Positions 12,021-59,744 of a stretch of 64,000 nucleotides of DNA are shown piece after piece. A model generated the notes under the pieces. It worked only from the letters and a program-made list of their open reading frames with translations. It was not told the origin of the DNA and did not search any database. The number at the start of each line of letters is the position of its first letter. Position 1 is the stretch's first letter. A program made the position numbers and the translations under genes. The stretch is from Leucoraja ocellata (lineage: Eukaryota): contig JAWMAR010000049.1 of NCBI GenBank assembly GCA_036785375.1, positions 5,270,001 through 5,334,000 of the forward strand, in the 5' to 3' direction.

Positions 12021-12244
12021 GGATATACATTGCTCTGTTTAAGAAGGAATGTTTCAGTTGTGTAATGAAATCTGTTCTTGGTTTTCAGAACAGATGTAAT
12101 TTAATTCAAATTATTCATCAATTTTTGTTTTTCTTTCAGATGTGCGTGCTATATTTCTGGTGCCTTGGAATTGATGTAAAGAAAATTAAAGTGGACTATT
12201 TTGGAAATCTGGATCAACGTCAATTATAGTTGCGATACTTCAAA

Positions 12245-13098
12245 ATGATAGGCAAATTAAAACACAACTTGCTTTTAGCATGTTTAGTGATTAGTTCACT
12301 CACAGTGTTTTATCTTGGCCGGTATGCATTAGAATGCCACCATAAAATAGATCACAACGGGAAACTTCTACAGGTATTAAGTAATGGAAGATCACTAAAT
12401 TATGTTTCGGGAACTGGATTAAAAAATAATTCAAACAGATTTGTTTACAACAAAGACATGCCATTAATATTTATTGGAGGCGTTCCACGAAGTGGCACCA
12501 CACTCATGAGGGCTATGCTCGATGCTCATCCTGATGTTCGCTGTGGCGAAGAGACCAGAGTTATTCCTAGAATTCTAGCGATGAAGCATATGTGGAGCAA
12601 ATCCGGCCGGGAAAAGCAGCGACTGGATGAAGCTGGTGTTACGGATGAGGTGCTGGATTCAGCCATGCAAGCCTTTTTACTAGAAATTATTGTTAAACAT
12701 GGGGAACCCGCTAAATACTTGTGCAATAAAGATCCGTTTGCCCTTAAATCGTTGACTTACTTAAGTAAAATATTTCCCAATGCAAAATTTATTCTAATGA
12801 TAAGAGATGGCCGTGCTTCAGTTCATTCTATGATTACTCGGAAAGTTACCATAGCAGGATTTGATCTCAGCAGTTACAGAGACTGCTTGACCAAATGGAA
12901 CCGTGCCATTGAGACCATGTATAACCAGTGTTTAGAAACTGGGTTTAATAAGTGTTTGCCAGTGCATTATGAACAACTTGTTTTGCATCCAACTACATGG
13001 ATGAAAAATGTTCTGAAGTTCCTAGACATACCTTGGAATACAGCAGTTTTACATCATGAAGAAATGATAGGAAAAGTTGGTGGTGTTTCACTTTCTAA
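12245..13098 (+). CDS. TPST1: Tyrosylprotein sulfotransferase 1, coding part of exon 2 (exon 12140-13098)
   Basis: [25 protein letters not shown] (type II anchor, TPST1-type N-terminus), 5'-[25 protein letters not shown], 3'-[11 protein letters not shown]; acceptor TTTCTTTCAG|A at 12140, phase-2 donor AA|GTAAGT. Confidence 0.97.
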
Positions 13099-14226
13099 GT
13101 AAGTATAAATTTACTTTAAATGTTTAAATACTTATAAAAGTGATTTGTATAAAGTATTATTTTAGTATTGTTTCATTAATGGTAAATAAAGTATACATGA
13201 CTTTGAGCCCCCATGTAGTTATTGTGGTTAGGACAAATAATAATAATAATAATATATTTTTTATTGTCATTGCACATAAGTGCAACTGAGCAGAACTTCT
13301 GTAATCCTGAGCAGAAATACTGAGCAGAATGTCTGTAATCCTATTGCAAGTTGTATGTATTTTAGTTTTGCAGGATATCTATACACATTTACTTTTATGA
13401 TGCAAAATCATTATTCATTCATTATCGTTGAAAACATTAGCGACGCAGTGGCGCTGGTTTCCAACGGGAACGGTGATGGACACACCACACATCTCTGTCC
13501 TCCTGTTACTGCAGACTTCCGCCGCTGGAAGTATAGGATTTTGGTGTGTGTGCTTTATCATCATTCCTTACAATGCTATGGATGACAGTGATCACAACTT
13601 CTACTGAAGTGTGAGTGGCCGTTGGCTCGCTAGAAGCTCAACCACCCTTTGACAGGTCTTGTTTTTGGTCCTGCTGGGGGTCCACAGCCCCCTCCTCACC
13701 TGGCAAACCAGGTGGGGGAGACGGTTTAGTCGCTGACTATCCCACCATGGAGCAGGTAGCACGGGATTACATGGTGCCTGTGGCAGGGGTCTCTTCCCCC
13801 CCCCCCCCCCCCCCCCCAACCTGATCTGAACGCAAAATGCTGTTACTTATTCATATGACTAAACGTATTCATTCATACTATGACAATTTGGATGTTCCCC
13901 TTATTTACATAGTCATATTTTGGGCACTAGAGCTCTTGATTTGGTTAAGTTTGTTCTGTGTATTATTCTCTGCATTCCATCTTTAAGCTTGGATCTCAAC
14001 AATTGAAATTTATAGCGTTAATAATCTGACCATGGAATTATGGTCTAACAACCTATAAAACGTTAACACCTTGGGATAGTCCAAACCCAGCATTATTCTG
14101 CTTAACTTTTAAGTAACTTTGTGAAGTCAATCTTCTCAAATGTGTTTTAACTTCCGCCCTTAAGTGACACATGATGAATTATTTATGGATGTTGAATGAA
14201 TCATGAGTATGGGTAGAACCCCATGC

Positions 14227-15112: not shown

Positions 15113-17426
15113 GATAGATATAGATATAGATATGCCATTTATTGTCACTATACATGTACAGTGAAACTGAAAGCTGCTCGTACTCAGTGCATACATACAA
15201 TTTTACACAAAAAACAAGAAACAGAAAAACAAAACAGAAGGGAGATGGGGGGGGGGGGGGAATAGGTGCACAAATTCTACGGCGCTACATACATATATAC
15301 ATATATACAGATGGAAGTCCGTGTTGGGCGGTGTAGTCAGTGCATGTGTGGATTTGAATTTATGGTAGATATAATTCTCGGGAAGCAGCTATTCCTGAGT
15401 CTGTTTGTCCTGGATTTGATGCACCTATAGCGCCTTCCAGAGGGCAGCAGGTCGAACAGTCCAAACGCAGGATGGGAGCTGTCTTTGGTGATCTTCTTTG
15501 CCCTGCTAAGGCAGCGGGAGGTGTAGATGTCCATCAGGGAGGGGAGAGGGCAACCAATGATCCTCTGCGCTGTCCTGGTTACCCTCTGAAGCCTCTCCCT
15601 GTCTGCCATGGTGCAGCTGCCATACCATGCTGTAATGCAGTATGTCAGCAGGCTCTCGATGGACGAGCGATAGAAGGTCAGCAGCAGGTTAGAGTCCAGG
15701 TTGTGCTTCCTGAGGACCCTCAGGAAGTGCAGCCGCTGCTGAGCCTTCTTGATGACCGCTGTCGTGTTGTCCGTCCAGGAGATGTCAGCCGCGATATGGA
15801 CGCCGAGAAACCGGAAGGTGTTGACCCTCTCCACACACTCGCCGTTAATGTGTAGGGGGATTAAGTCGGTGCTGTGCCTCCTGAAGTCGACAATGAGCTC
15901 TTTTGTTTTCCTGGTGTTCAGAGCCAGATTGTTTTCTGAGCACCAGGTTGTCAACTTCAGGACTTCCTCTCTGTAGGCTGTCTCGTCTCCCTTTGAAATA
16001 AGTCCGACCACAGTAGTGTCGTCAGCAAATTTGACGATGCGGTTGTTGTTGTGGGCCGGACTACAGTCGTAGGTGTAGAGACAGTATAAGAGGGGGCTTA
16101 GCACACAGCCCTGTGGGGAACCGGTACTCAACCTGCGAGTGGAGGAGAGGTGGGGGCCAAGTCTCACAGTCTGGGGCCGGTTTGTGAGGAAATCCTTAAT
16201 CCAGGCACATGTGACAGTGGGGAGGCCGAGAGTGACCAGTTTACCAATGAGGATGTCCGGGATGATTGTGTTAAAGGCTGAACTAAAATCCACAAAGAGC
16301 ATCCGGACGTAGCTCTGCCCCTGCTCCAGATGGCTCAGCACAGAGTGGAGAGCTACGGTGATGGCGTCTTCTGTGGATCTGTTTTGGCGATAAGCGAATT
16401 GGTGGGGGTCGAAGTCTGGTGGTAGATAGTCCTTGATGTGCTGGAGGACCAATCTCTCGAAGCACTTCGTGATTACCGGAGTGAGGGCAACAGGACGGTA
16501 GTCATTAAGGCTGGTGATGGGAGACTTCTTCGGCACAGGGACGATTGTGGCTGATTTTAGGCAGGACGGAATAACTGCCTGGGCCAGGGAGAGATTGAAA
16601 ATTCTGGTGAAGATGGCAGTGAGCTGGTGGGCGCACGCTTTGAGCACCTTACCAGGGACTCCATCTGGGCCGGTAGCCTTCTTGGGGTTCACTGCCAGGA
16701 GCACCCGTCTGACATCGTGTTCCCCGACAGTGAGTGGGGTAGTACAGGAGCCAGGTGAGGGTGGGAACAGGGCTGTAGCAGGTGAGTGCTGCTGTTGTGA
16801 TGTTTCAAAGCGGGAGAAGAAGCAATTTAGCTTTTCTGCCAGCGGCGCACTCAGGTCTTCTGACTTTGTGGCACAGCCTCTGTAGTTGGTAATGTCTTGT
16901 ATGCCCCGCCATACCTCCCGTGTATTATTGCTGGACAAGTGGGACTCTATGCTCCTCTTGTGATCCGCCTTGGCCTTTTTAATACCACTTTTCAGGTCGG
17001 CTCGAGCAGCCCTGTACAGAGCTCTGTCACCTGACCTGAAGGCAGCATCGCGGGCTCTGAGGAGTGTGCGGACCTGACTGGACATCCAGGGTTTCTGGTT
17101 TGGGAAAACCCGTATGTTTTTGTCTACAGTCACATTTCCGATGCAGAACTTGATATAGTCCAGCACCGATTCTGTGAGAGATTCCAGGTCCTGGTGTTCG
17201 AATATGTCCCAGTTTGTCTGGGTAAAGCAGTCCTGTAGATTGGAGAGTGCATTTTCAGGCCAGGTTGTAACAGATTTTATGGTGGGCCTGGCACTGCGTC
17301 TGAGGGGGGTGTAGGCTGGAGAGAGCAGGAGGGAGAGATGGTCTGACTGGCCGAGTTGGGGGAGGGGGATGGCTCTATACGCGTGCTTGATATTGGTGTA
17401 AACATGATCCAGCGTGTTCACCCCTC
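15113..17426 (-). mobile_element. Rex1/Babar-clade LINE, 5'-truncated and young
   Basis: Intact RT frame, 3' UTR ending ..GACAATAAATGGCAT plus (ATCT/ATATCT)n tail at ~15113-15133; TATA duplicated at 15109-15112 and 17427-17430. Confidence 0.9.
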
Positions 17427-17448
17427 TATAAGTTAATCTTCGTCTCAT
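15337..17448 (-). CDS. Rex1-type reverse transcriptase ORF (C-terminal APE remnant + RT), 703 codons without stops
   Basis: TLDHVY..LGQSDH (end of APE), PNQKPWM, YRPVALT..KCFERLV, QFAYR.NRSTEDAI, FVDFSSAFNTI, GSPQGCVLSPLLY, KFADD, FRFLGVHI..W. Confidence 0.9.
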   Translation of the reverse strand: MRRRLTYRGVNTLDHVYTNIKHAYRAIPLPQLGQSDHLSLLLSPAYTPLRRSARPTIKSVTTWPENALSNLQDCFTQTNWDIFEHQDLESLTESVLDYIKFCIGNVTVDKNIRVFPNQKPWMSSQVRTLLRARDAAFRSGDRALYRAARADLKSGIKKAKADHKRSIESHLSSNNTREVWRGIQDITNYRGCATKSEDLSAPLAEKLNCFFSRFETSQQQHSPATALFPPSPGSCTTPLTVGEHDVRRVLLAVNPKKATGPDGVPGKVLKACAHQLTAIFTRIFNLSLAQAVIPSCLKSATIVPVPKKSPITSLNDYRPVALTPVITKCFERLVLQHIKDYLPPDFDPHQFAYRQNRSTEDAITVALHSVLSHLEQGQSYVRMLFVDFSSAFNTIIPDILIGKLVTLGLPTVTCAWIKDFLTNRPQTVRLGPHLSSTRRLSTGSPQGCVLSPLLYCLYTYDCSPAHNNNRIVKFADDTTVVGLISKGDETAYREEVLKLTTWCSENNLALNTRKTKELIVDFRRHSTDLIPLHINGECVERVNTFRFLGVHIAADISWTDNTTAVIKKAQQRLHFLRVLRKHNLDSNLLLTFYRSSIESLLTYCITAWYGSCTMADRERLQRVTRTAQRIIGCPLPSLMDIYTSRCLSRAKKITKDSSHPAFGLFDLLPSGRRYRCIKSRTNRLRNSCFPRIISTINSNPHMH

Positions 17449-20279
17449 CTGTCCACAAGACCTTTTTCCAGAACAGTGGTTGCTCTTTTAAGTACTTCTT
17501 GGCAAACTGTAACCTGGCCACCCTATTTTTGTGGCTAACCAGTGGTTTGCATCTTGCAGTGTAGCCTCTGTATTTCTGTTCATGAAGTCTCCTGCGGACA
17601 GTGGTCATTGAAATCCACACCCGACTCCTGAAGAGTGTTTCTGATCTGTCAGACAGGTGTTTGGAGATTTTTCTTTATTGTAGAGAGAATTCTGTGATCA
17701 TCTGCGGAGGTCTTCCTTGGCCTGCCCGTCCCTTTACGATTAGTAAGCTCACCTTTCTTCTTAATGATGTTCCAAACAGTTGATTTTGGTAAACCTAAAG
17801 TTTGGCTGATGTCTCTGTTGTATTTGTGTTTCTCATACTCATAATGGCTTATTTGACTTTCATTGGCACAACTTTGGTTCTCATGCTGATAGACTGCAAT
17901 GACAGTTTCCAAAGATGATGGAAAGACTGGAGGAAAGACTAGGTGCTGAGAGCTCTCTTATATTAAACACCTGAGCAATTAAACACATATGAGCAATTAC
18001 AAACATCTATGAAGCCATGTGTCCCCAACATTATGGTGCCTTGAAATGGAGAGACTATGTATAAACACAGCTGTAATTTCTACATGGTGAAATCAAAATG
18101 TATAAAACTGGCCTTTAATAAAATCTGACAACGTGCACTTTAACCACATATGATGTTTTCTATTACAAATCTCAAATTGTGGAGTACAGAGGCAAATCAA
18201 TAAACGGTGGGTCTTTGTCCCAAACATTATGGAGGGCACTGTACGTGCTTTATATGTGCAGGTACAAAACGTCCAGCTTTTGTGCATGCAACTGAAGCCA
18301 AAATTCCTATCAGATCCTGGTGCACACTTTGAGCAACTACAGTCAATACTGTAAGGACTTGCAGAAATGGCTGGAGTTGCTCAATGTGTGAGCCAGGATC
18401 TGACAGCAATTTTGGATTTATTTGCATGTATAAAAGCTGGAAGCTGTATCACTCTTACAGTGAAAGTTTGCTTCCTTGCTGCTGGCTTTGGCAGATGTTT
18501 TTTTTTAAAGCTTCCCAATACGATTTACAGTATAGGAGAATTGGAAGTCCGCTCAATGCGAATGCTCCTTTTGGAGCTGTACTTGTACTGCCTGTTATAT
18601 GCTTATAAATATTTTTTGACTTTATTCGGTTTGGAAGTATGTGCTACCTCAGACACCACGGGGTTCGGGAACAAAATGTCGAAGCAAAACAAGAACATGG
18701 CTAGTAATATAAAATATCTTGGCAACTGTTTCATTATTATTTTACAGGGAATAAAATAAGTTTTGCATTTGTATCAGACTTTTTTGGATTTCTTTTAGAA
18801 TGTTAATCAAGTATGTTGTGGTCAGTAAATTACTTCCAAAATGTAAACACCATTCTGATGTGGAAATAAAGCAGGTAATTTTGTCTGCTACTCATGTACA
18901 GATGTATGAGAATGATCAGGTAATATTTTGAAGATGGGGCAATATTTACGAGGAGGTAAATTAATTGTGAATTCTTTGTGACCTTTTGGAGACCAGATAT
19001 GAGATGATCATCAAGTTCATCAAGCAATTATGATGGTATGTTGGTCTTTATTCCAGGGGGATTTTCGGATGTGCGTCCTCACCAAGATCTCTTGTTCCAA
19101 TACTATGGGGTCCTGAAGTGCTTGTATCTGGAATATTGCCTACATTTGTCCCTACTCAAATGTGATGGAGATAGAACAGTGCGGATTGAACAGACTAATT
19201 CCCGTAATGGTGTTTGAAAGGGTTGGACCAGTTCAGGAAAGTGAGAGGGTATCTGATGAGCACAACCTAGTCCTATCCAGGAACCTCAGTCTCGATTTAA
19301 GACAACAATTATTCTCCTACCTTGTTACTAGGTAGTAGAATACCATTATACCAAAGTGCAGTTACTTGTTGGGAACCTACATGAGAGCATAGAGCGAATA
19401 AATCTTGCAACCCAAAAAACCTGCTCTATCATTCAGCAAGGAAATAAGTAATTGTGCCTTGCCCTTTTCCCACCTGTTCCCCATAACCTTTGACATCCCC
19501 ATAGATCAGAAATTGTATTCTTAATGATTAATGCTACGGCAATTAATAGGAATAGAATTGGCCACAACCTTTTTTCCCCATACTGTTAGGCTCACAGATA
19601 TAAAATGATTCCTACATCTAGGTTATCATCTTCGAGGAAGATGAATATTGTGTCATGAAGTTGCATATGCTGGAATTAAAATCTGACCTGAAGCCATGTG
19701 CTGTCTGTATTTGTTCTACAGTATTAATTGGAGTTTGGTAACCAGTATCAAAGCCATAGAAAAAGGCAACGTCTGCCACCAGAATTGCGAACAGGAAAAC
19801 CAGTTTGAATATGTAATGTGGATGTTTCTTTGAAGATAAAGTATGAAGACCCACAGAGCTAGGCAAAGCAAGTAATGAAATTGAAGAGAGGGAGTGTAAG
19901 AAATGAGGAGGGTGCCGAGAACCAAACAAAATGTTGGATTTCCAAGGCCGGACCAGGAGCTGATTTTGACCTATGCCAAAGCTGAAACACAGTGCTTGTA
20001 AAACAGTGTTTTGATAGTTATGCAAATTACAGGTGGAGAAGCCAAAGTCTCAACTTCAAATGAATTTCCATGCCCAACGCTGATGTCATGTCACTTGTGC
20101 TTTTCCTCCTGTTTTCTATAATCTTATTAATGTTGCTTAAACCATTCAGTGGTTACAATTTATTTTTAAAATATCCTTTTTTCATTGCAACATCAACCAC
20201 CTCTAGCCAAAACCAAATTTAGTTTGTGAAAAGAAGGAAGTAGCTTGAAGTGGAGCAGAATGCGGGCCGTGAGTGTGCA

Positions 20280-20720: not shown

Positions 20721-20930
20721 AGATAGACACAAAATGCTGGAGTAACTCAGCAGGTCAGGCAGCATCTCTGGAGAAAAAGAATAGGTGACGTTTCGCATTG
20801 AGACCCTTCTTCAGACCTGAGACGTCACCTATTCCTTTTCTCTAGAGATGCTGCCTGACCCGCTGAGGTACTCCAGTATTTTGTGTCTATCTTCAGTGTA
20901 AACCAGAATCTGCAGTTCTATCCTACACAT
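20721..20930. mobile_element. Fold-back PLE-derived element with hammerhead motif
   Basis: ~70-bp inverted arms (AGATAGACACAAAATGCTGGAGTAACTCAGC..ATAGGTGACGT / ACGTCACCTAT..GTACTCCAGTATTTTGTGTCTATCT) around minus-strand GGTCTGAAGA..GAAACGTCACC. Confidence 0.8.
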
Positions 20931-21873: not shown

Positions 21874-22072
21874 GGTTGAACGATCTACAGATCAAGTCAT
21901 CAAACCTGTCAATATTGAAGCCTTAACAAAATGGGTGGGGAAAATTCCGCATGAAGTAGTTCGCGAAATGCCAGTGATTGCCCCAATGTTAGCAAAACTT
22001 GGATATGATCCATATGCAAACCCACCAAATTATGGAAAACCAGATCCAGCAGTTATTGAAAACACTAAAAGG
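21874..22072 (+). CDS. TPST1: TPST1 coding exon 3 (199 nt)
   Basis: TTACAG|G acceptor; (K)[66 protein letters not shown]; donor AGG|GTAGGT; phase matches exon 2. Confidence 0.96.
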
Positions 22073-31530: not shown

Positions 31531-32673
31531 TAGCATTATTAAAATGCTTTTACTCACCAAAAACGTAAACTTTAATTCCTTAACATTAAGTAGGTAAGCC
31601 TCGCCACCTGAAAATTGTATTTTAAGGTATACGTCATTTTGGAAATATTGTTGTTCCTTAATTATTACTGGATCAAAATTCCTGAATACCATGCCTAAAA
31701 GTACAGGAAGCAAACGTGGTCAGCAGTGGTTCAAGAAGACCATAATCAACCTGCTTCTCAAAGCCAAAGATGTCCACTTCCCACAAATTGAAAAGACCAA
31801 CATTTATTTAATATTTATCTTGTTGACAATAGAACATATTTCTAAACAATTTTATAATGTTTCAGCTGTTTACAATAAGATAAAAGTGGTAACAGTAGAC
31901 CAAATACTTAAAAATGAGTGACCTGTACGTTGAAGTTGCAATTCTTTCCTTGTGATACTGCTTGAGACTTGAATGTTAAATTTCATTTCCAGGAAAAAAA
32001 TGAACTTTAAAAACGAATATTGTGCACAAAATATTTATCACCCAGCACAAATATATTTAATAACTAGAGTTTGTAGGTGGAGTAGGTACCTGCAATGTCT
32101 TTATCATATTTTCGTTCAAAAAATAATTTGAATTTTTTTTATAAAATAGTGTAATTCATTCAGTCTCTTGTACTGCTCCATTGTAAACAAATTAATGCTA
32201 ATTTTAATTCAATAAATATTCAAAAAAACTTCATCTATTTCTTGGAGCTTTTTTTCTTAAATGTCATAATTCAGTTTTTATTGCCTCAAGTTGGTAATAT
32301 TTTGTTGTGGTAATCCTTAGTATGTTCTTGCAATATGTTTTCCTTTGTTTGTGGAGTTTATGATGCTTGTTATTAAGTAGAATACATATTACAATTCATT
32401 AAACTTCTCTTTTGTTTAAGTGTTTAGTTTAATAAACGGTCTATGCAAAGACTCAACCAGTTTTAGATGTGAAGTGGAGATTTGTTTTCAGGCATTGTTA
32501 GCTTGGTTAATCATCAGGCTTTCTTGGTAAAATAATAATATAATTTACCCGTCAACATCCCTGCATCAGCTCTTTGCAATGATCCATTTCCCCACCATTT
32601 TTATTGTAGAGTATAGCCAAAGATGAATGAATTAAAAAAAATAAAAATTTAAGTGTACACCTGTCATGTAATA

Positions 32674-32844
32674 GACACAAAAAGCTGGAGTAACTCAGCG
32701 GGACAGGCAGCATCTCTGGAGAGAAGGAATGAATGACGTTTTGGGTCGAGACCCTTCTCTCCAGAGATGCTGCCTGTCCCGCTGAGTTTCTCCAGCTTTT
32801 TGTGTCTATCTTCCGTTTAAACCAGCATCTGCATTCCTTCTTAC
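32674..32844. mobile_element. Fold-back PLE-derived element with 17-bp TSD
   Basis: Near-perfect inverted arms; ACACCTGTCATGTAATA at 32657-32673 and 32845-32861. Confidence 0.85.
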
Positions 32845-53610: not shown

Positions 53611-54843
53611 ACATGGAATATTACGAGACATAACAAATCTTTCTGAACTTCTAAGAAAAGAGAGGCGCTATCTTCTTCTTCATTACATCTATCGGTTGGG
53701 CCCAGGGCATATCATCTGAGATGTTAACACCCAGGAATTTGAAACTGCTAACCAAAGATACTAGTATCTTTGCTGCTAACTCTCTCCACCACCAACGAAA
53801 ATTGAAACTGGTGAAAGTTGAATGGTCACCGTGGATGGAAAGGATTTGGAGAGCCTGATGCTGAACACTCAGAATTTCCAAATAATTGGAGAGCAGGTCA
53901 TTATAGTTTTATTGTATTTGGTGAATTATGCTTCATAAATGAATGTACTGTGAAACACATTAACTGGCATTGGGGGAATCACACTGCTGACTGCCGAATT
54001 AATTTGAGGACTCTTTCAGCTTTGGGCCTCATAAGGTCTGCTGCTTAAGAGACCATGAACAGCAATTCTTCCAATCACTTAAGTTTGTCTAAAATGTTTT
54101 GAACATCCAGGAAGAGGAACGGCAACCATATCATATTTTTTGTACTTTAATACCATATGACAGGAGGCCATTTGGACCATCGAATCCATGCCAGCTCTCA
54201 GAGTAATCCCATCCCCCCCCCCCCCCCCCCCCCCCTAAGTTCACAGTGACCTGTTGTTTCACACATGCCCTTTAACATACCATCCACATCCCATCCCCAA
54301 TTCTCCTACAATCCACCTAATCCAAGGATAATTTACAGCACCCAACCCACATGTCTTTGGGATGTGAGAGAAGGAGAACATTTAACCTCCACACACACAA
54401 CACCGCAGGTCAGAATTGAAAATGGGTTGCTGGAGCTGTGATGCAGCTGCACTACCTGAAGTACCACTGAGCCACACTGTATCAACAGAGTCCTACAAAA
54501 GGTCCTGGTTGACTTCCACATTACTATTAAGAGAACCTCTGTTCCAGGACCTGTGTGCTGTGAGCAAGACTCCACTGAACTCAATCTCTTGGATTCCACA
54601 ATACATTTACTAATCACTGGAAACACCACCGAAGATTCAGGGTGCGATAACCATTGCACAGACTTCAACTACCTCTGATCCTTAATGCTACACTGTCACC
54701 AGCAATCCTGGGTATGTAGGACAAACTGGCCAACAGGAATTGATACAATGTTTGACATAATTCTCAGAACAACGACAAGTATGTACAATTTATCCTCCCA
54801 GATCCCCATCTTAATTGATTTTAAAGGTCTGTTCAGCTGCTAG

Positions 54844-55369
54844 TGTTGATTCACGTTTCTCTCTCACATCGGTTGTTTCGACAATAATCGACCAGGCACC
54901 GGGGTTGCTTTAAACGTACGTTTATTGAGCAGGAGTCCTCACACAGGTTACAACCTGGCAAAGAGTCAAGCTGCCTGCCCTTAATTGCAAGGCTCTTTAT
55001 ATGTTAATGCCACCGTTTAGCACCTCCCACATTCCCCCCGATCAAAGGACCAACACGTTGGGAGAAACAGGAAACCAAGTATGTCCATATAAGGGGATGT
55101 TAGAGGAACCACGCATAATCTCAGACCAGTACATTCCTTAGTCTTTCTGGCTGGGGGGGGTTGTGTATTCCTCAATCTTGTCAGACTGGGTCTGTGATCC
55201 TTTATTCATGATACACAGTAATTGCAAGACATTGTGATTTCCTTAATTGCAGCCGGTTCCAGCAAGTCTGGTCAGCAGCCATCTTATGTCCTTTGTTTCA
55301 GTCTACCTGGCCAACCATTTTGTCTTTCAGAACAATCTTATAACATTGATTCAGAATTTCTATTCATCA
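54844..55369 (-). repeat. ERV 3' LTR (526 bp)
   Basis: TG..CA termini; no differences from 59204-59729 found by eye. Confidence 0.95.
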
Positions 55370-55382
55370 TTCCCCCCTTTTG
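55370..55382 (-). other. ERV polypurine tract
   Basis: Minus strand AAAAAGGGGGGAA immediately before the 3' LTR. Confidence 0.85.
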
Positions 55383-55946
55383 CCATTCTTATGGCAACAC
55401 TCATAGTCCATTTAAAAGTCCCATTCGCCGAAACTCGTAACCTTTTAGTTCCCTGGCCAAGGCTTCTTGGACCGTCCAACCTTTATCCCCAATTCTCCTT
55501 CCTCACGCACTTCATCGTTTTCGCTGTCGCTGGGGAATGGTAACAGTCTCTGCTGCTCACGCTGTAAGACCATCATTCGTACAGAACTTTTAGCTTCCTC
55601 GGGGGTGGTCCCCAAACCCAATAAGGCCACCATTAATCGGGCTTGACAGGGACCGGATTTTTGTCCTGGCACTTCACCAGTCGTTCAGTTCTGCCCCATG
55701 CAGGGGATGGGGTAAACAGGGAGGTAACTGATGTCATTTGTGGATAACAAACCACTTGCCCCTTCCCGAATAGCTCGTTGTGTCCCTGGATGAATAAATT
55801 GGAGTTTTCTCGTTCCCCTCTCTTTCCTCGTTTGTTCCGTCCGTATTCAGGCTTTGTCCATTTCCAGCCAAAACCGATTAACCTGGCAGTGGTCGCCACA
55901 CATATTAATGCCACAAAGACCCTGATCTCAGTGAATTATTTCGTAT
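55383..55946 (-). pseudogene. env-like remnant preceded by a splice acceptor
   Basis: Minus TTCTTTTCTTTTTCACTCCCTTGTCTTCACAG| at 55947; hydrophobic VFVALICVATTA then RNKRGKR; position between pol and PPT; short and disrupted. Confidence 0.45.
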
Positions 55947-55998
55947 CTGTGAAGACAAGGGAGTGAAAAAGAAAAGAACGTGCAATTTCATGGCAAAA

Positions 55999-57330
55999 TT
56001 AATTTGTGCCCTGCTTTCCGTGGACTGGATCCCCCTCCCTGACCTCGACCTCCCCCCTTTGCTTGGTGTCACCAACCACTTTGCAATGGTGCAAATGCAC
56101 CCATGCCGATCGTCCTTCTACCTTTACTGCGGTGGGAGTGGTGAGGAGAACCTGGAAGGGGCCCAACCATCGAGGAGAAAGGGTGTCCTTACAAATCCAA
56201 TTCTTAATCAACACATAAGAACCCGGGGTGATCCGTCCATTAACGGGAAATTCTATGTCGCCCACATAAGCGGCCTTGACCTCCCCATGAATCTCACGCA
56301 GGGCCCTTGTAAGGGCAGGGACGTAGGGGACCATCTCCTCCGTCATGTGATGCAACGTCATTGTGGCCGGGATAATGTCTGTCCAGGGTTTGCACAGAGG
56401 TCGGCCATAGATGATCTCTGCAGGAGACAACCTTGTCTTCCCTGCTGGAAGGACTCTGATCTGGAACAAAGCAACGGGCAACATTTTAACCCAGGTGGAG
56501 CCTGATTGGTCCACCAGCTTGGCAAGCTTGGTCTTCAGGGTCTGGTTCAAACGTTCCACCATTCCTGCAGCTTGTGGGCGATAAGCACAATGCAGCCGCT
56601 GGGTTACGCCCAGCTGTCTGTACAATTCTTTATTGATAGCGGCAATGAAGTGAGGGCCGTTATCCGAACTGATGGTGTTTGGAACCCCGAAACGAGGAAC
56701 AACCTGCCGTAATAAAATAGACACCACCGTAGAGGCAGTGCAATCAGTGGTTGGAAAGGCTTCAATCCACCTAGAAAACACATCAACAATAACAAATACA
56801 TGTTTATAACACTGACACTTAGGCAAATCAATAAAATACATCTGTAAGGTTTCAAACGGAGCAGTAGGTAATGCAGTACGACCCGTCTGGCAGACAACTC
56901 CTTTACCAGGGTTGTGTGTAGCACAGGTGAGGCACCGCGCACTAGTTTGGGCTGCCAAAACCTTAAGTTGAGGATGCCACCATGCCTGTAAGAGAGCGCC
57001 TACTAGCAAGGTGGCCCCACAGTGAGTGGCTAAATGTAGGCAATCAACAACCCAGGTCGCTAACTGGTCTGTCATACAGGTCTGTCCGGCCGGCGTGAGC
57101 CACAATCCAGAGTCAGCCTTCCGACAGCCCAGCTGCTCCCATTCCATTATAACATTAGCAGAGGCGTCCCCCTGTAAGAGCTATACATCATTTATGGTTG
57201 GCATAGGTTTCTCAGATTCAGACGAGCCCATATAAAGGTTTTTCACCTGCCTCATCATACTACCCACCACTTTAAATCTACCGCGTGAAGCACACTTAGC
57301 CGCATCGTCAGCCAACCTGTTACCGAACAG
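55999..57330 (-). pseudogene. pol: ERV pol remnant: RNase H C-terminus + integrase
   Basis: GNRLADDAAK (end of RNase H), one in-frame TAG at 57181-57183, HLATH..CLTC zinc motif, LQMYFIDL / SDNGPHF / GMVERLN core, WLGPFQVLLTTPTAVKV..WVH (GPY/F-type C-terminus). Confidence 0.9.
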
Positions 57331-57885
57331 GACTGGCAACGGGGGCAGTCTGGTTCAACGGGGGTGCTCCACGGACTCCCCAAGGATAATCCTCTACCTC
57401 CTCCTCGTCATCACCTCCCAAATCTATGCCAGCCACCGACTTACGTAAGTCTTTATCTACCTTGGCCATATTTTGTCTCTCTCTCTCTCCTGACGATCCT
57501 TACTTTCTTTAGCATGCCTGCATTCCTGTTTTAATACTGTCACTGACTTCTCCTGACCCCCCTCGGTCAGGGGTATTCCTGTTTCAAGGCATTGCTCTGC
57601 CAACTGGCCGTTAAAGACCGTGCCTTTTCTTTGTTACAATGATCGATCCACAACTGAATGGCCCTTTTACATTTTTTTATTTTTTTTTTTTAATCCGTTC
57701 TCCATATTACACTTTGGGCTCTTGATAACACACTCATAACCCCCTTCAGGCCATTCATCCTTCCCCAGTTTATGAAAGAGTCCTCCCGACATACGCCTAA
57801 AGGTCTCCTCCATTTCTGGATGCAAGAAACATAGCTGATGTAATGGCCGGTCTGGGTGACAACTGGTGTCCATACCATTACCCAT
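57331..57885 (-). pseudogene. gag: ERV gag N-terminal remnant
   Basis: MGNG start (myristoylation-like), WPEGG motif, position after the leader; frameshifted and joined by deletion to the RNase H end. Confidence 0.6.
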
Positions 57886-57899
57886 TTTTAAACTTATTA

Positions 57900-58880
57900 C
57901 TATTACACACAATATTTCAGGGTTAACCACGAGTCCTTGGTTCCACCGTATCTCACTCGGTCACTTCAATTCCTGACCTTCGCGTGGAGGATTTCCTCTC
58001 TTAACAACCAGTCTAAGGCGGACTTTCTGTGAGATACGGAGGTACTTTGGTCTCGGCTAACACTCAATACTTGCTAACTCTTTCAGGGTTAACCTAGAGC
58101 CCTTGGTTCCTCCGTATCTCACTCGGCCACTTTAAAGTGGACTTTCTGTGAGATATGGGGGTACCTTGGTCTCAGTTAACGTCTCAATACTAGTTAACTT
58201 TATTACACAAATATCACAACAAAATTTCAGGGTTAACCGTGAGTCCTTGGTTCCGTCGTATCTCACTCGGCCACTTTAAAGTGGACTTTCTGTGAGATAT
58301 GGGGGTACTTTGGTCTCGGCTAACACTCAATACTTGCTAACTCTTTCAGGGTTAACCTAGAGCCCTTGGTTCCTCCGTATCTCACTCGGCCACTTTAAAG
58401 TGGACTTTCTGTGAGATATGGGGGTACCTTGGTCTCAGTTAACGTCTCAATACTAGTTAACTTTATTACACAAATATCACAACAAAATTTCAGGGTTAAC
58501 CGTGAGTCCTTGGTTCCGTCGTATCTCACTCGGCCACTTTAAAGTGGACTTTCTGTGAGATATGAGGGTACTTTGGTCTCGGCTAACACTCAATACTTGC
58601 TAACTCTTTCAGGGTTAACCTAGAGCCCTTGGTTCCTCCGTATCTCACTCGGCCACTTTAAAGTGGACTTTCTGTGAGATATGGGGGTACCTTGGTCTCA
58701 GTTAACGTCTCAATACTAGTTAACTTTATTACACAAATATCACAACAAAATTTCAGGGTTAACCGTGAGTCCTTGGTTCCGTCGTATCTCACTCGGCCAT
58801 TTTAAAGTGGACTTTCTGTGAGATATGAGGGTACTTTGGTCTCGGCTAACACTCAATACTTGTTAACTCTTTCAACTAGT
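57900..58880. repeat. Tandem array of 7 hairpin monomers in the ERV leader (119/144-bp alternation, 263-bp higher-order unit)
   Basis: TTTCAGGGTTAACC at 57915, 58081, 58225, 58344, 58488, 58607, 58751. Confidence 0.95.
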
Positions 58881-59182
58881 TAACTTCCTATACACAGTGC
58901 ACTCCTCTTATATACCGTCTACGGTCCCCCTCTACGGGGTGTTTTATCCGCTCGATCAGACTAGGATAATCCTCGAGACGGCCCTATCCCCGTGCCCACA
59001 ACCGGAATGTTCGGATGTCGTCCCACCAACTGACGCAAGTCAGCGAATTACCCTGCTACGCCGGGATACGAGGAAGGACCAAGAGGAGATTTAACTAAAT
59101 CTACTCACTTGGCTGCGCACCCTTCACATCGATCCCGTCGCCCAGTGGATTCACTCGCCGGCTCGATCAGTCGCTGGTTGAC

Positions 59183-59200
59183 ATCCCACTTCTGACACCA
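59183..59200 (-). other. Primer-binding site, tRNA-Leu(CAA)
   Basis: Minus TGGTGTCAGAAGTGGGAT, complementary to the 3' end of vertebrate tRNA-Leu (..ATCCCACTTCTGACACCA), 3 nt from the LTR. Confidence 0.85.
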
Positions 59201-59203
59201 AAA

Positions 59204-59729
59204 TGTTGATTCACGTTTCTCTCTCACATCGGTTGTTTCGACAATAATCGACCAGGCACCGGGGTTGCTTTAAACGTACGTTTATTGAGCAGGAGTCCTC
59301 ACACAGGTTACAACCTGGCAAAGAGTCAAGCTGCCTGCCCTTAATTGCAAGGCTCTTTATATGTTAATGCCACCGTTTAGCACCTCCCACATTCCCCCCG
59401 ATCAAAGGACCAACACGTTGGGAGAAACAGGAAACCAAGTATGTCCATATAAGGGGATGTTAGAGGAACCACGCATAATCTCAGACCAGTACATTCCTTA
59501 GTCTTTCTGGCTGGGGGGGGTTGTGTATTCCTCAATCTTGTCAGACTGGGTCTGTGATCCTTTATTCATGATACACAGTAATTGCAAGACATTGTGATTT
59601 CCTTAATTGCAGCCGGTTCCAGCAAGTCTGGTCAGCAGCCATCTTATGTCCTTTGTTTCAGTCTACCTGGCCAACCATTTTGTCTTTCAGAACAATCTTA
59701 TAACATTGATTCAGAATTTCTATTCATCA
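59204..59729 (-). repeat. ERV 5' LTR (526 bp) with TATA box and poly(A) signal
   Basis: Minus TATAAA at 59356-59361 and AATAAA at 59281-59286; candidate donor AA|GTGAGT at 59108 downstream. Confidence 0.95.
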
Positions 59730-59744
59730 CTAGTCTTATCCATA

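Follow-up and report, generated by a model that had tools for sequence, protein, structure and literature searches.

A tandem array of palindrome-tipped hairpins in the leader of a young, internally deleted class I endogenous retrovirus of Leucoraja ocellata

Introduction

The leader of an endogenous retrovirus (ERV) of Leucoraja ocellata contains a long hairpin in seven tandem copies, five of them carrying the same palindrome at the apex. The question raised by this locus is what such an array would do for a retrovirus, and whether its copies are useful at all. A preliminary description of the 64,000-nucleotide stretch of DNA analysed here (the window) proposed an amplified cis-acting RNA module retained while most of the coding sequence was lost. 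Repeats in the leaders of fish ERVs have been listed without a function (PMC3382231; bioRxiv 2021.01.21.427598), and a review of dimerization and packaging covers alpha-, beta-, gamma-, delta- and lentiviruses, with no epsilon section in the excerpts available (PMC5874298). The array bears on whether such leader repeats are packaging modules or sources of small RNA, and its modular, palindrome-tipped hairpin is a short and concrete RNA for studying genome pairing and selection in retroviruses of cartilaginous fishes. Published sources are cited throughout by accession and from excerpts of their text.

Results

A very young provirus and its relatives

A 4,886-bp, internally deleted provirus was delimited on the minus strand of the window (54844-59729; Table 1). 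Both LTRs are 526 bp long and 100% identical, with TG...CA ends, and a 4-bp target-site duplication, a primer binding site (PBS) and a polypurine tract are all present, in agreement with the earlier assignment to a young ERV. The PBS is presumably of the leucine-tRNA type. Residues 1-883 of the skate Pol model and the later part of gag, with its capsid/nucleocapsid part, are missing from this copy, in line with the earlier statement that most of the coding sequence was lost. The pol remnant has one in-frame stop near 57.18 kb and is devoid of protease, reverse transcriptase (RT) and most of RNase H. Two short open reading frames (ORFs) in the remnant upstream of the polypurine tract had no Pfam match, and their designation as env is inferred from position.

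The first ORF downstream of the leader, starting at 57885, received no gag identity from Pfam, word search or language-model search, and a 1,816-amino-acid skate model gave no alignment to the gag remnant. One relative aligned from its own residue 1 at 57885, and its language-model features weakly suggested a resemblance to retroviral matrix clusters; the ORF may on this basis be matrix-like. A TPR-repeat protein, the top match of a deep search with the gag remnant, was rejected as spurious.

The integrase is of the gamma/epsilon type, and the closest named relatives are Leucoraja XP_055501356.1 (97% identity) and Amblyraja XP_032884936.1 (91%). At least three further Leucoraja models matched it at 96%, and these models keep RT and RNase H. 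The RT relatives were found among class I ERVs. When 16 named rows were placed in an RT tree, those from skates and sharks, four in all, grouped in one clade with full support; the tree contains no named epsilon reference row and leaves the genus within class I unassigned. On these sequence grounds, we classify the provirus as a class I ERV that is very young and has suffered internal deletion, from a family with RT-bearing members in skates. The hairpin unit occurred nowhere else in the 64-kb window, where the best match outside the array was 14 nt, and it was absent from plasmid records. A scan of genome contigs for relatives returned one contig, of 3.8 kb, that encodes a distant integrase but has neither a leader nor an array. 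A fish-ERV-like integrase was encoded on a contig of a bacterial metagenome-assembled genome assigned to Brevinema (L001:402-1493), which is probably host contamination of that assembly.

Table 1. Features of the provirus and its hairpin array (positions in the window).
Feature	Position	Strand	Remarks
Target-site duplication, left copy	54840..54843	.	4 bp, matching bases at both provirus ends
3' LTR, 526 bp	54844..55369	-	100% identical to 5' LTR
Polypurine tract	55370..55381	-	Purine run adjoining 3' LTR
Short remnant in env position	55400..55947	-	Begins at acceptor-like site near 55947 (pyrimidine tract and AG)
pol remnant: RNase H end and integrase	55999..57336	-	rve and MLVIN_C; Leucoraja Pol residues 884-1219 at 96%
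gag 5' remnant, possibly matrix-like start, split over several frames	57340..57885	-	ATG in strong context at 57885
Hairpin unit M1, gag-proximal, 72-nt loop	57922..58061	-	No perfect palindrome
Hairpin unit M2, type A	58088..58180	-	Palindrome 58127-58140
Hairpin unit M3, type B with one A-type base	58232..58324	-	Palindrome 58271-58284
Hairpin unit M4, type A	58351..58443	-	Palindrome 58390-58403
Hairpin unit M5, type B	58495..58587	-	Palindrome 58534-58547
Hairpin unit M6, type A	58614..58706	-	Palindrome 58653-58666
Hairpin unit M7, type B, PBS-proximal	58758..58850	-	One-base palindrome variant at 58797
Non-repeated structured leader	58880..59182	-	Donor-like site at 59108; short GC-centred palindromes
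Primer binding site	59183..59200	-	Starts with TGG, three bases past 5' LTR
5' LTR, 526 bp	59204..59729	-	TATA-like at 59362; AATAAA at 59286
Target-site duplication, right copy	59730..59733	.	Pairs with 54840..54843

A host gene for protein-tyrosine sulfotransferase 1 has exons on the plus strand of the window (12230-13102, 21884-22071 and about 34920), and a GC-rich stretch at 6.0-7.1 kb may be the promoter of this gene. The provirus may lie in an intron of the gene or downstream of it, in antisense orientation. The window also contains near-perfect fold-back inverted repeats at 32670-32810 (-116 kcal/mol), 20750-20860 (-77 kcal/mol) and 18300-18410 (-62 kcal/mol), the first two of which are built of a short interspersed repeat common in the window, and an open 716-codon frame on the minus strand (15337-17487), assigned by eye as LINE reverse transcriptase-like.

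Seven units of three types

The anchors of the seven units were recomputed at 57917, 58083, 58227, 58346, 58490, 58609 and 58753, which reproduced the spacings of 166, 144, 119, 144, 119 and 144 bp in the preliminary description. The 263-bp higher-order unit was recovered as 3.3 copies with 99% matches, and the 14-nt palindrome was found, as claimed, in five units, with a one-base variant in a sixth. The array was likewise confirmed to lie downstream of the PBS and a donor-like site and upstream of the gag ATG. The hairpins are 93 nt long, or 140 nt in M1; their arms measure 33 and 35 nt, and the spacers between units 26 and 51 nt. The loop of the gag-proximal unit is 47 nt longer than that of the others (72 nt vs 25 nt), again as reported, and the extra bases are inserted at the centre of the palindrome equivalent.

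The three 263-bp AB units differ mutually at 1, 2 and 3 sites. Since they are nearly identical, the seven copies provide only three independent sequences, M1, A and B. A pure assembly artefact was rejected for the three distinct types; this rejection does not extend to the exact number of AB units, and the copy number of seven is that of the assembly, from one provirus copy. On the plus strand, the 26-nt spacers at 58057, 58320 and 58583 look like a 3' splice site with its branch point and pyrimidine tract, a resemblance that might be relevant to any host transcript running through the array. In the loop of M1 (58010-58021), ten bases are complementary in the viral sense to what we take to be a D-arm motif of leucine tRNA, presumably the primer; the estimated probability of such a match by chance is roughly a few percent. 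There was no Rfam tRNA signal in 57800-59300, and a tRNA scan was empty.

Folding of the units on both strands

Folding was compared with 300 dinucleotide shuffles on both strands, a check that the preliminary description had called for. No shuffle folded as well (0/300) in 26 of the 28 tests, and in the remaining two, those of the gag-proximal unit in the viral sense, 1/300 and 2/300 were as good. The viral-sense z scores ranged from -3.4 to -5.4. A long imperfect stem was retained from the preliminary description, and its strand was corrected: the arms as first written are those of the plus strand, antisense to viral RNA. The stem, first given as about 35 bp, comprises 33 pair positions and a 2-nt bulge, with 25-27 positions paired in the viral sense and 27-28 in the antisense. 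The palindromic apex also stood, with a different fold from the UUUAAA loop first drawn: within the 25-nt loop it is predicted to fold as a sub-hairpin of its own, with 5 bp and in most cases a 4-nt UUAA loop.

In the viral sense, the folding energies were -36.3 kcal/mol for the A units and -27.5 to -31.8 kcal/mol for the B units. Among GC-matched 93-nt windows of the same strand elsewhere (n = 2296), 10 reached -37, 29 reached -32 and 150 reached -28 kcal/mol, and the type B units fell within the top 1-7% of GC-matched windows of the region. The units are good, not extreme, hairpins in the viral sense. The cores of M2-M7 were 9-11 kcal/mol weaker in viral RNA than in the antisense because G-U wobbles of the antisense become A.C mismatches. 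Elsewhere in the provirus the sense strand folded better on average, and an antisense gap of at least 8 was reached in 10/202 windows. The array is A-rich in the sense orientation (33% vs 23%), and 67-74% of the unpaired bases are purines in the viral sense; owing to this composition, the antisense gains G-U pairs where the sense has A.C mismatches. The one-sided changes gave the same count on each strand, two keeping the pair and two breaking it. The sense strand is the natural substrate, and the strand asymmetry leaves room for an antisense role.

When the whole array was folded (sense, 200-nt span), the probability of forming its own hairpin was 0.95-0.99 for the end units and 0-0.75 for the five middle units, which often paired with a neighbour. 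An alternative register, in which the 3' arm pairs with the 5' arm of the next unit, was possible and weaker in sum. The region next to the array, the non-repeated leader and adjoining sequence at 58880-59335, formed long-range stems (z -4.2, with 0/100 shuffles as good).

Distribution of changes among unit types

In the sense register, M1, A and B showed 8 changes on 12 unpaired nucleotides vs 6 on 56 paired nucleotides (binomial P 0.001), and in the antisense register 5 on 10 unpaired vs 9 on 58 paired (P 0.04); the test is partly circular, as the unpaired sites were defined from the same three sequences. Two of the six paired-site changes in the sense register make up one two-sided change, C-G to U-A, two keep a wobble and two break a pair. 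One position is mismatched in three different ways, and each of the three types has its own 2-nt bulge sequence. Between A and B there are no differences in the 25-nt apical loop and nine in the 68 stem nucleotides (P 0.03-0.05). The apex is the most conserved part of the unit between these two types, either because selection has held the apex constant or because units have exchanged sequence, a process that may have left its trace in M3. Taken together, the array is real, non-random and probably constrained in structure.

Self-pairing of the apical palindrome

The self-duplex of the 14-nt palindrome was computed at -20.2 kcal/mol. The gain on homodimer formation was 11.6 kcal/mol for the palindromic units vs 6.7 and 7.8 kcal/mol for the two units without a perfect palindrome. 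Loop self-pairing amounted to +1.8 kcal/mol for UUAA and 0.0 kcal/mol for UUUAAA, compared with -10.9 and -7.9 kcal/mol for two GC-rich DIS hexamers. DIS loops are described as carrying a GC dyad (PMC12789967). The apex is thus a self-complementary loop in a 5' leader without an exposed GC-dyad hexamer or stable loop-loop pairing, and because the loop is A/U-only and pairs weakly with itself, it is not a classic kissing-loop DIS. In MuLV, the stem-loops SL-A and SL-B, with palindromes of 10 and 16 nt, expand to extended duplexes with NC, and template switching prefers such palindrome contacts (PMC5874298). By analogy, an extended duplex like that of SL-A/SL-B would fit the skate array better than a kissing loop.

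Palindromes of 14 nt or longer are not rare in the window, which contains seven other distinct ones, two of these within the provirus. The two, both perfect and 14 nt long, are located in the LTR just past the polyA signal (59271-59284 and 54911-54924) and in the gag remnant (57438-57451). The non-repeated leader has its own GC-centred palindromes of 6-8 nt.

Discussion

A proposed dimer-linkage and packaging module

We tentatively favour the explanation that the array is an amplified dimer-linkage/packaging module of a class I skate ERV, similar to that of MuLV and multiplied by template switching. The units sit between the donor-like site and gag, so the array is carried only by unspliced genomic RNA, and packaging signals downstream of a donor are known to be removed by splicing (PMC12789967). 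Under the proposed mechanism, the palindromes of two co-packaged genomes would convert, with the aid of nucleocapsid, into extended intermolecular duplexes, with no need for a stable loop kiss. Unpaired purines in the stems and loops would offer contacts for Gag; such purines are reviewed as a Gag-binding kind of site (PMC12789967). The hairpins would also pause reverse transcriptase while the two genomes pair out of register, and template switching would then duplicate and delete units, an older round giving rise to the A and B types and a very recent one tripling the AB pair.

Several observations count against this module. Tandem palindromes can pair within one molecule in the predicted folds, which would compete with pairing between genomes. 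Because the non-repeated leader is structured and has GC-centred palindromes, the true DIS may lie there. In addition, the loop is built of A and U alone and lacks the GC dyad of DIS loops, no GACG tetraloop tops the units, the M2-M7 cores fold better in the antisense, type B units reach just the top 1-7% of GC-matched windows in the sense, palindromes of this length are not rare, exchange between units could account for the shared apex of A and B, and there are only three independent sequences. Of the preliminary proposal, the amplified cis-acting RNA module is supported by its position in the leader, by folding better than shuffles, by changes at unpaired sites and by the conserved loop of A and B, and its kissing-loop version is weak. 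The further suggestion, of an array maintained because it aids a parasitic element in competition for helper Gag, found no support. This copy also kept 1.3 kb of pol, the divergence of A and B predates this insertion, and ZFERV, whose map shows ORFs for gag, pol and env, likewise contains a repeat region on the leader side (PMC3382231).

Alternative explanations

The hairpins could instead be polycistronic Microprocessor substrates, each cut to a pre-miRNA of 67 nt and a duplex of 22 nt; the source would be either, in the sense, the intron removed from env RNA or an antisense transcript, whose guides would match seven sites in unspliced RNA. We regard this as unlikely. miRNA clusters have a similar spacing and A/U-rich spacers, and here the units are 119-144 nt apart with spacers of that composition. 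In a 13/11 register, the 22-nt duplex ends exactly at the apical junction and the pre-miRNA is 67 nt in 6/7 units. The antisense cores are more stable, and in the antisense 5p arm, which begins with U over mismatches, positions 2-8 are the same in 7/7 units; an unchanged 7-nt stretch is, however, expected by chance at this divergence. Judged by mammalian pri-miRNA rules, the 33-position stem lies inside the 33-39 optimum, with the 2-nt bulge 7-8 positions from the base in a bulge-enriched zone (PMC5340965). By the same kind of comparison, however, pairing reaches 74-79% in the sense and 79-82% in the antisense vs a reported cut-off of 82%, the structured 25-nt loop exceeds the enriched range of 8-16 nt, and a tandem mismatch at positions 19-20 from the loop falls in a bulge-depleted zone. 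A basal UG at -14/-13 was present in 4/7 sense units and 0/7 antisense units, and neither CNNC at +16-18 nor an apical UGU was found (0/14 strand-unit tests each); many real miRNAs lack such motifs. The pattern of conservation is the reverse of that in miRNA families, in which the arms are more conserved than the loop. Seven cut sites would destroy genomic RNA. A Drosha-dependent miRNA from the ALV-J genome indicates that a retrovirus can tolerate such processing (PMC3911700). A Pol III layout of the BLV type, with an A box in the 5p arm/loop, a T4-6 terminator at the hairpin's 3' end and a downstream B box (PMC4267658), was rejected: the A-box pattern is misplaced at the loop/3p junction, T4 follows 3/7 units and no B box is present. 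A more elaborate version, which we consider improbable, combines both functions: an antisense microRNA-like cluster, transcribed from the 3' LTR or by host read-through on the plus strand, would yield guides that start with U and share one seed in 7/7 units; fully complementary to seven sites of the unspliced viral RNA, these would silence that RNA and spare spliced RNA, while the same hairpins would pair genomes in the sense. If true, a fish retrovirus would thereby carry its own switch for silencing its genome.

A multimerized element controlling the fate of unspliced RNA, through CTE-like nuclear export, splicing control or control of gag translation across the 1.3-kb leader, appears less likely than a plain miRNA source. 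Its presence only in unspliced RNA suits this reading, as do the irregular long stems with A-rich internal mismatches, the distance of 1,296 nt with few upstream ATGs from the PBS to the gag ATG, and the donor-like GTGAGA opening the 3' arm in 7/7 units, although that motif is paired within the stem. RSV exports its RNA via direct repeats and MPMV via the CTE, and the export elements covered in the excerpts of that review are found outside the leader, within pol or env or close to the 3' end (PMC12789967). No Rfam family, export and IRES families included, matched 57800-59300 at E up to 10 and none reached the gathering score in the whole window, which counts against this reading and the miRNA one alike; control of RNA fate also leaves the palindrome unexplained. 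A DNA-level element, in which the units would serve the provirus as transcription-factor sites or as a row of Pol III promoters, is very improbable. Palindromes suit dimeric factors, and 6/7 units (sense) contain a perfect match to the Pol III A-box pattern, compared with 11 such matches in the other 63 kb on both strands. The six A boxes, however, are one event copied, they lie at the loop/3' arm junction, not near the 5' end as in BLV, and the array has no B box on either strand; the conserved bulge, the wobbles and the two-sided change point to RNA structure. Finally, and with a probability that we also put low, though close to that of the miRNA source, the array may be a neutral unstable repeat in which one hairpin is functional or incidental and switching or slippage makes the copy number drift without benefit. 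Between the 263-bp units there are only 1-3 base differences, so most copies must be extremely recent, M3 carries a base of the other type, and ZFERV has a leader-side repeat of unrelated size (9 units, 517 bp; PMC3382231), which suggests that such leaders expand repeatedly. Stem-loops raise template switching between direct repeats and promote their rearrangement, while reverse transcription deletes direct repeats at 41% per cycle for 110 bp and 16% for 250 bp, less so as they diverge (PMC3187697). Because deletion depends on divergence, the A/B pair should be fairly stable and the three near-identical AB units unstable; these units are either very recent, or selected, or arose in host DNA. 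Long persistence of near-identical repeats would need selection, and the A, B and M1 types have diverged yet kept the stem, both of which weigh against neutrality. If the copies are neutral, the array is merely a tidy case of repeat expansion through template switching.

Comparison with known systems

Leader repeats in fish ERVs were already known, as the preliminary description noted. Shen and Steiner reportedly located the repeat region of ZFERV in the leader in 2004. In this epsilon-like ERV of zebrafish, 9 direct repeats together span 517 bp (PMC3382231), in a region shown separately from gag, pol and env (bioRxiv 2021.01.21.427598). It resembles the skate provirus in being a young fish ERV with a tandem repeat region; unlike the skate units, its repeats average about 57 bp, too short for a 93-nt hairpin, and the excerpts assign them neither a structure nor a function; the likeness is one of description. 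No precedent was found in the open full-text literature for a hairpin or miRNA array of this kind in the leader of a fish ERV, although an earlier account is possible; the excerpts of PMC8672886, PMC4422223 (shark ERVs), PMC4977317, PMC9967133, PMC8278194, PMC2717909 and PMC4616055 contain nothing on such arrays. Among retroviral miRNAs, the ALV-J E(XSR) miRNA and the BLV cluster are also hairpins in non-coding sequence, clustered in BLV, but as described neither is in a 5' leader or a tandem repeat. The skate and shark class I ERVs (XP_055501356.1 and XP_032884936.1) have an integrase 91-97% identical to that of this copy, and their models keep the RT/RNase H that this copy has lost.

The kissing-loop DIS of HIV-1, ALV (L3), MMTV and MPMV shares with the skate units a self-complementary hairpin apex in the 5' leader. 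It is described as a single-copy, exposed hexamer with a GC dyad, whereas the skate loop is A/U-only, predicted to be 4 nt and multicopy. The likeness to SL-A and SL-B of MuLV is closer: both lie in a class I leader between the donor region and gag, both involve a palindrome folded into a hairpin and convertible to an extended duplex, and the MuLV leader, too, is reported to contain several palindromes. MuLV has the adjacent GACG-tetraloop hairpins SL-C and SL-D, a tetraloop seen in none of the predicted folds of the skate units or leader, and the skate case is a computed one. Where MuLV uses different palindromes, the skate array repeats one of them five times, each atop a stem of 33 positions and with a loop made entirely of A and U.
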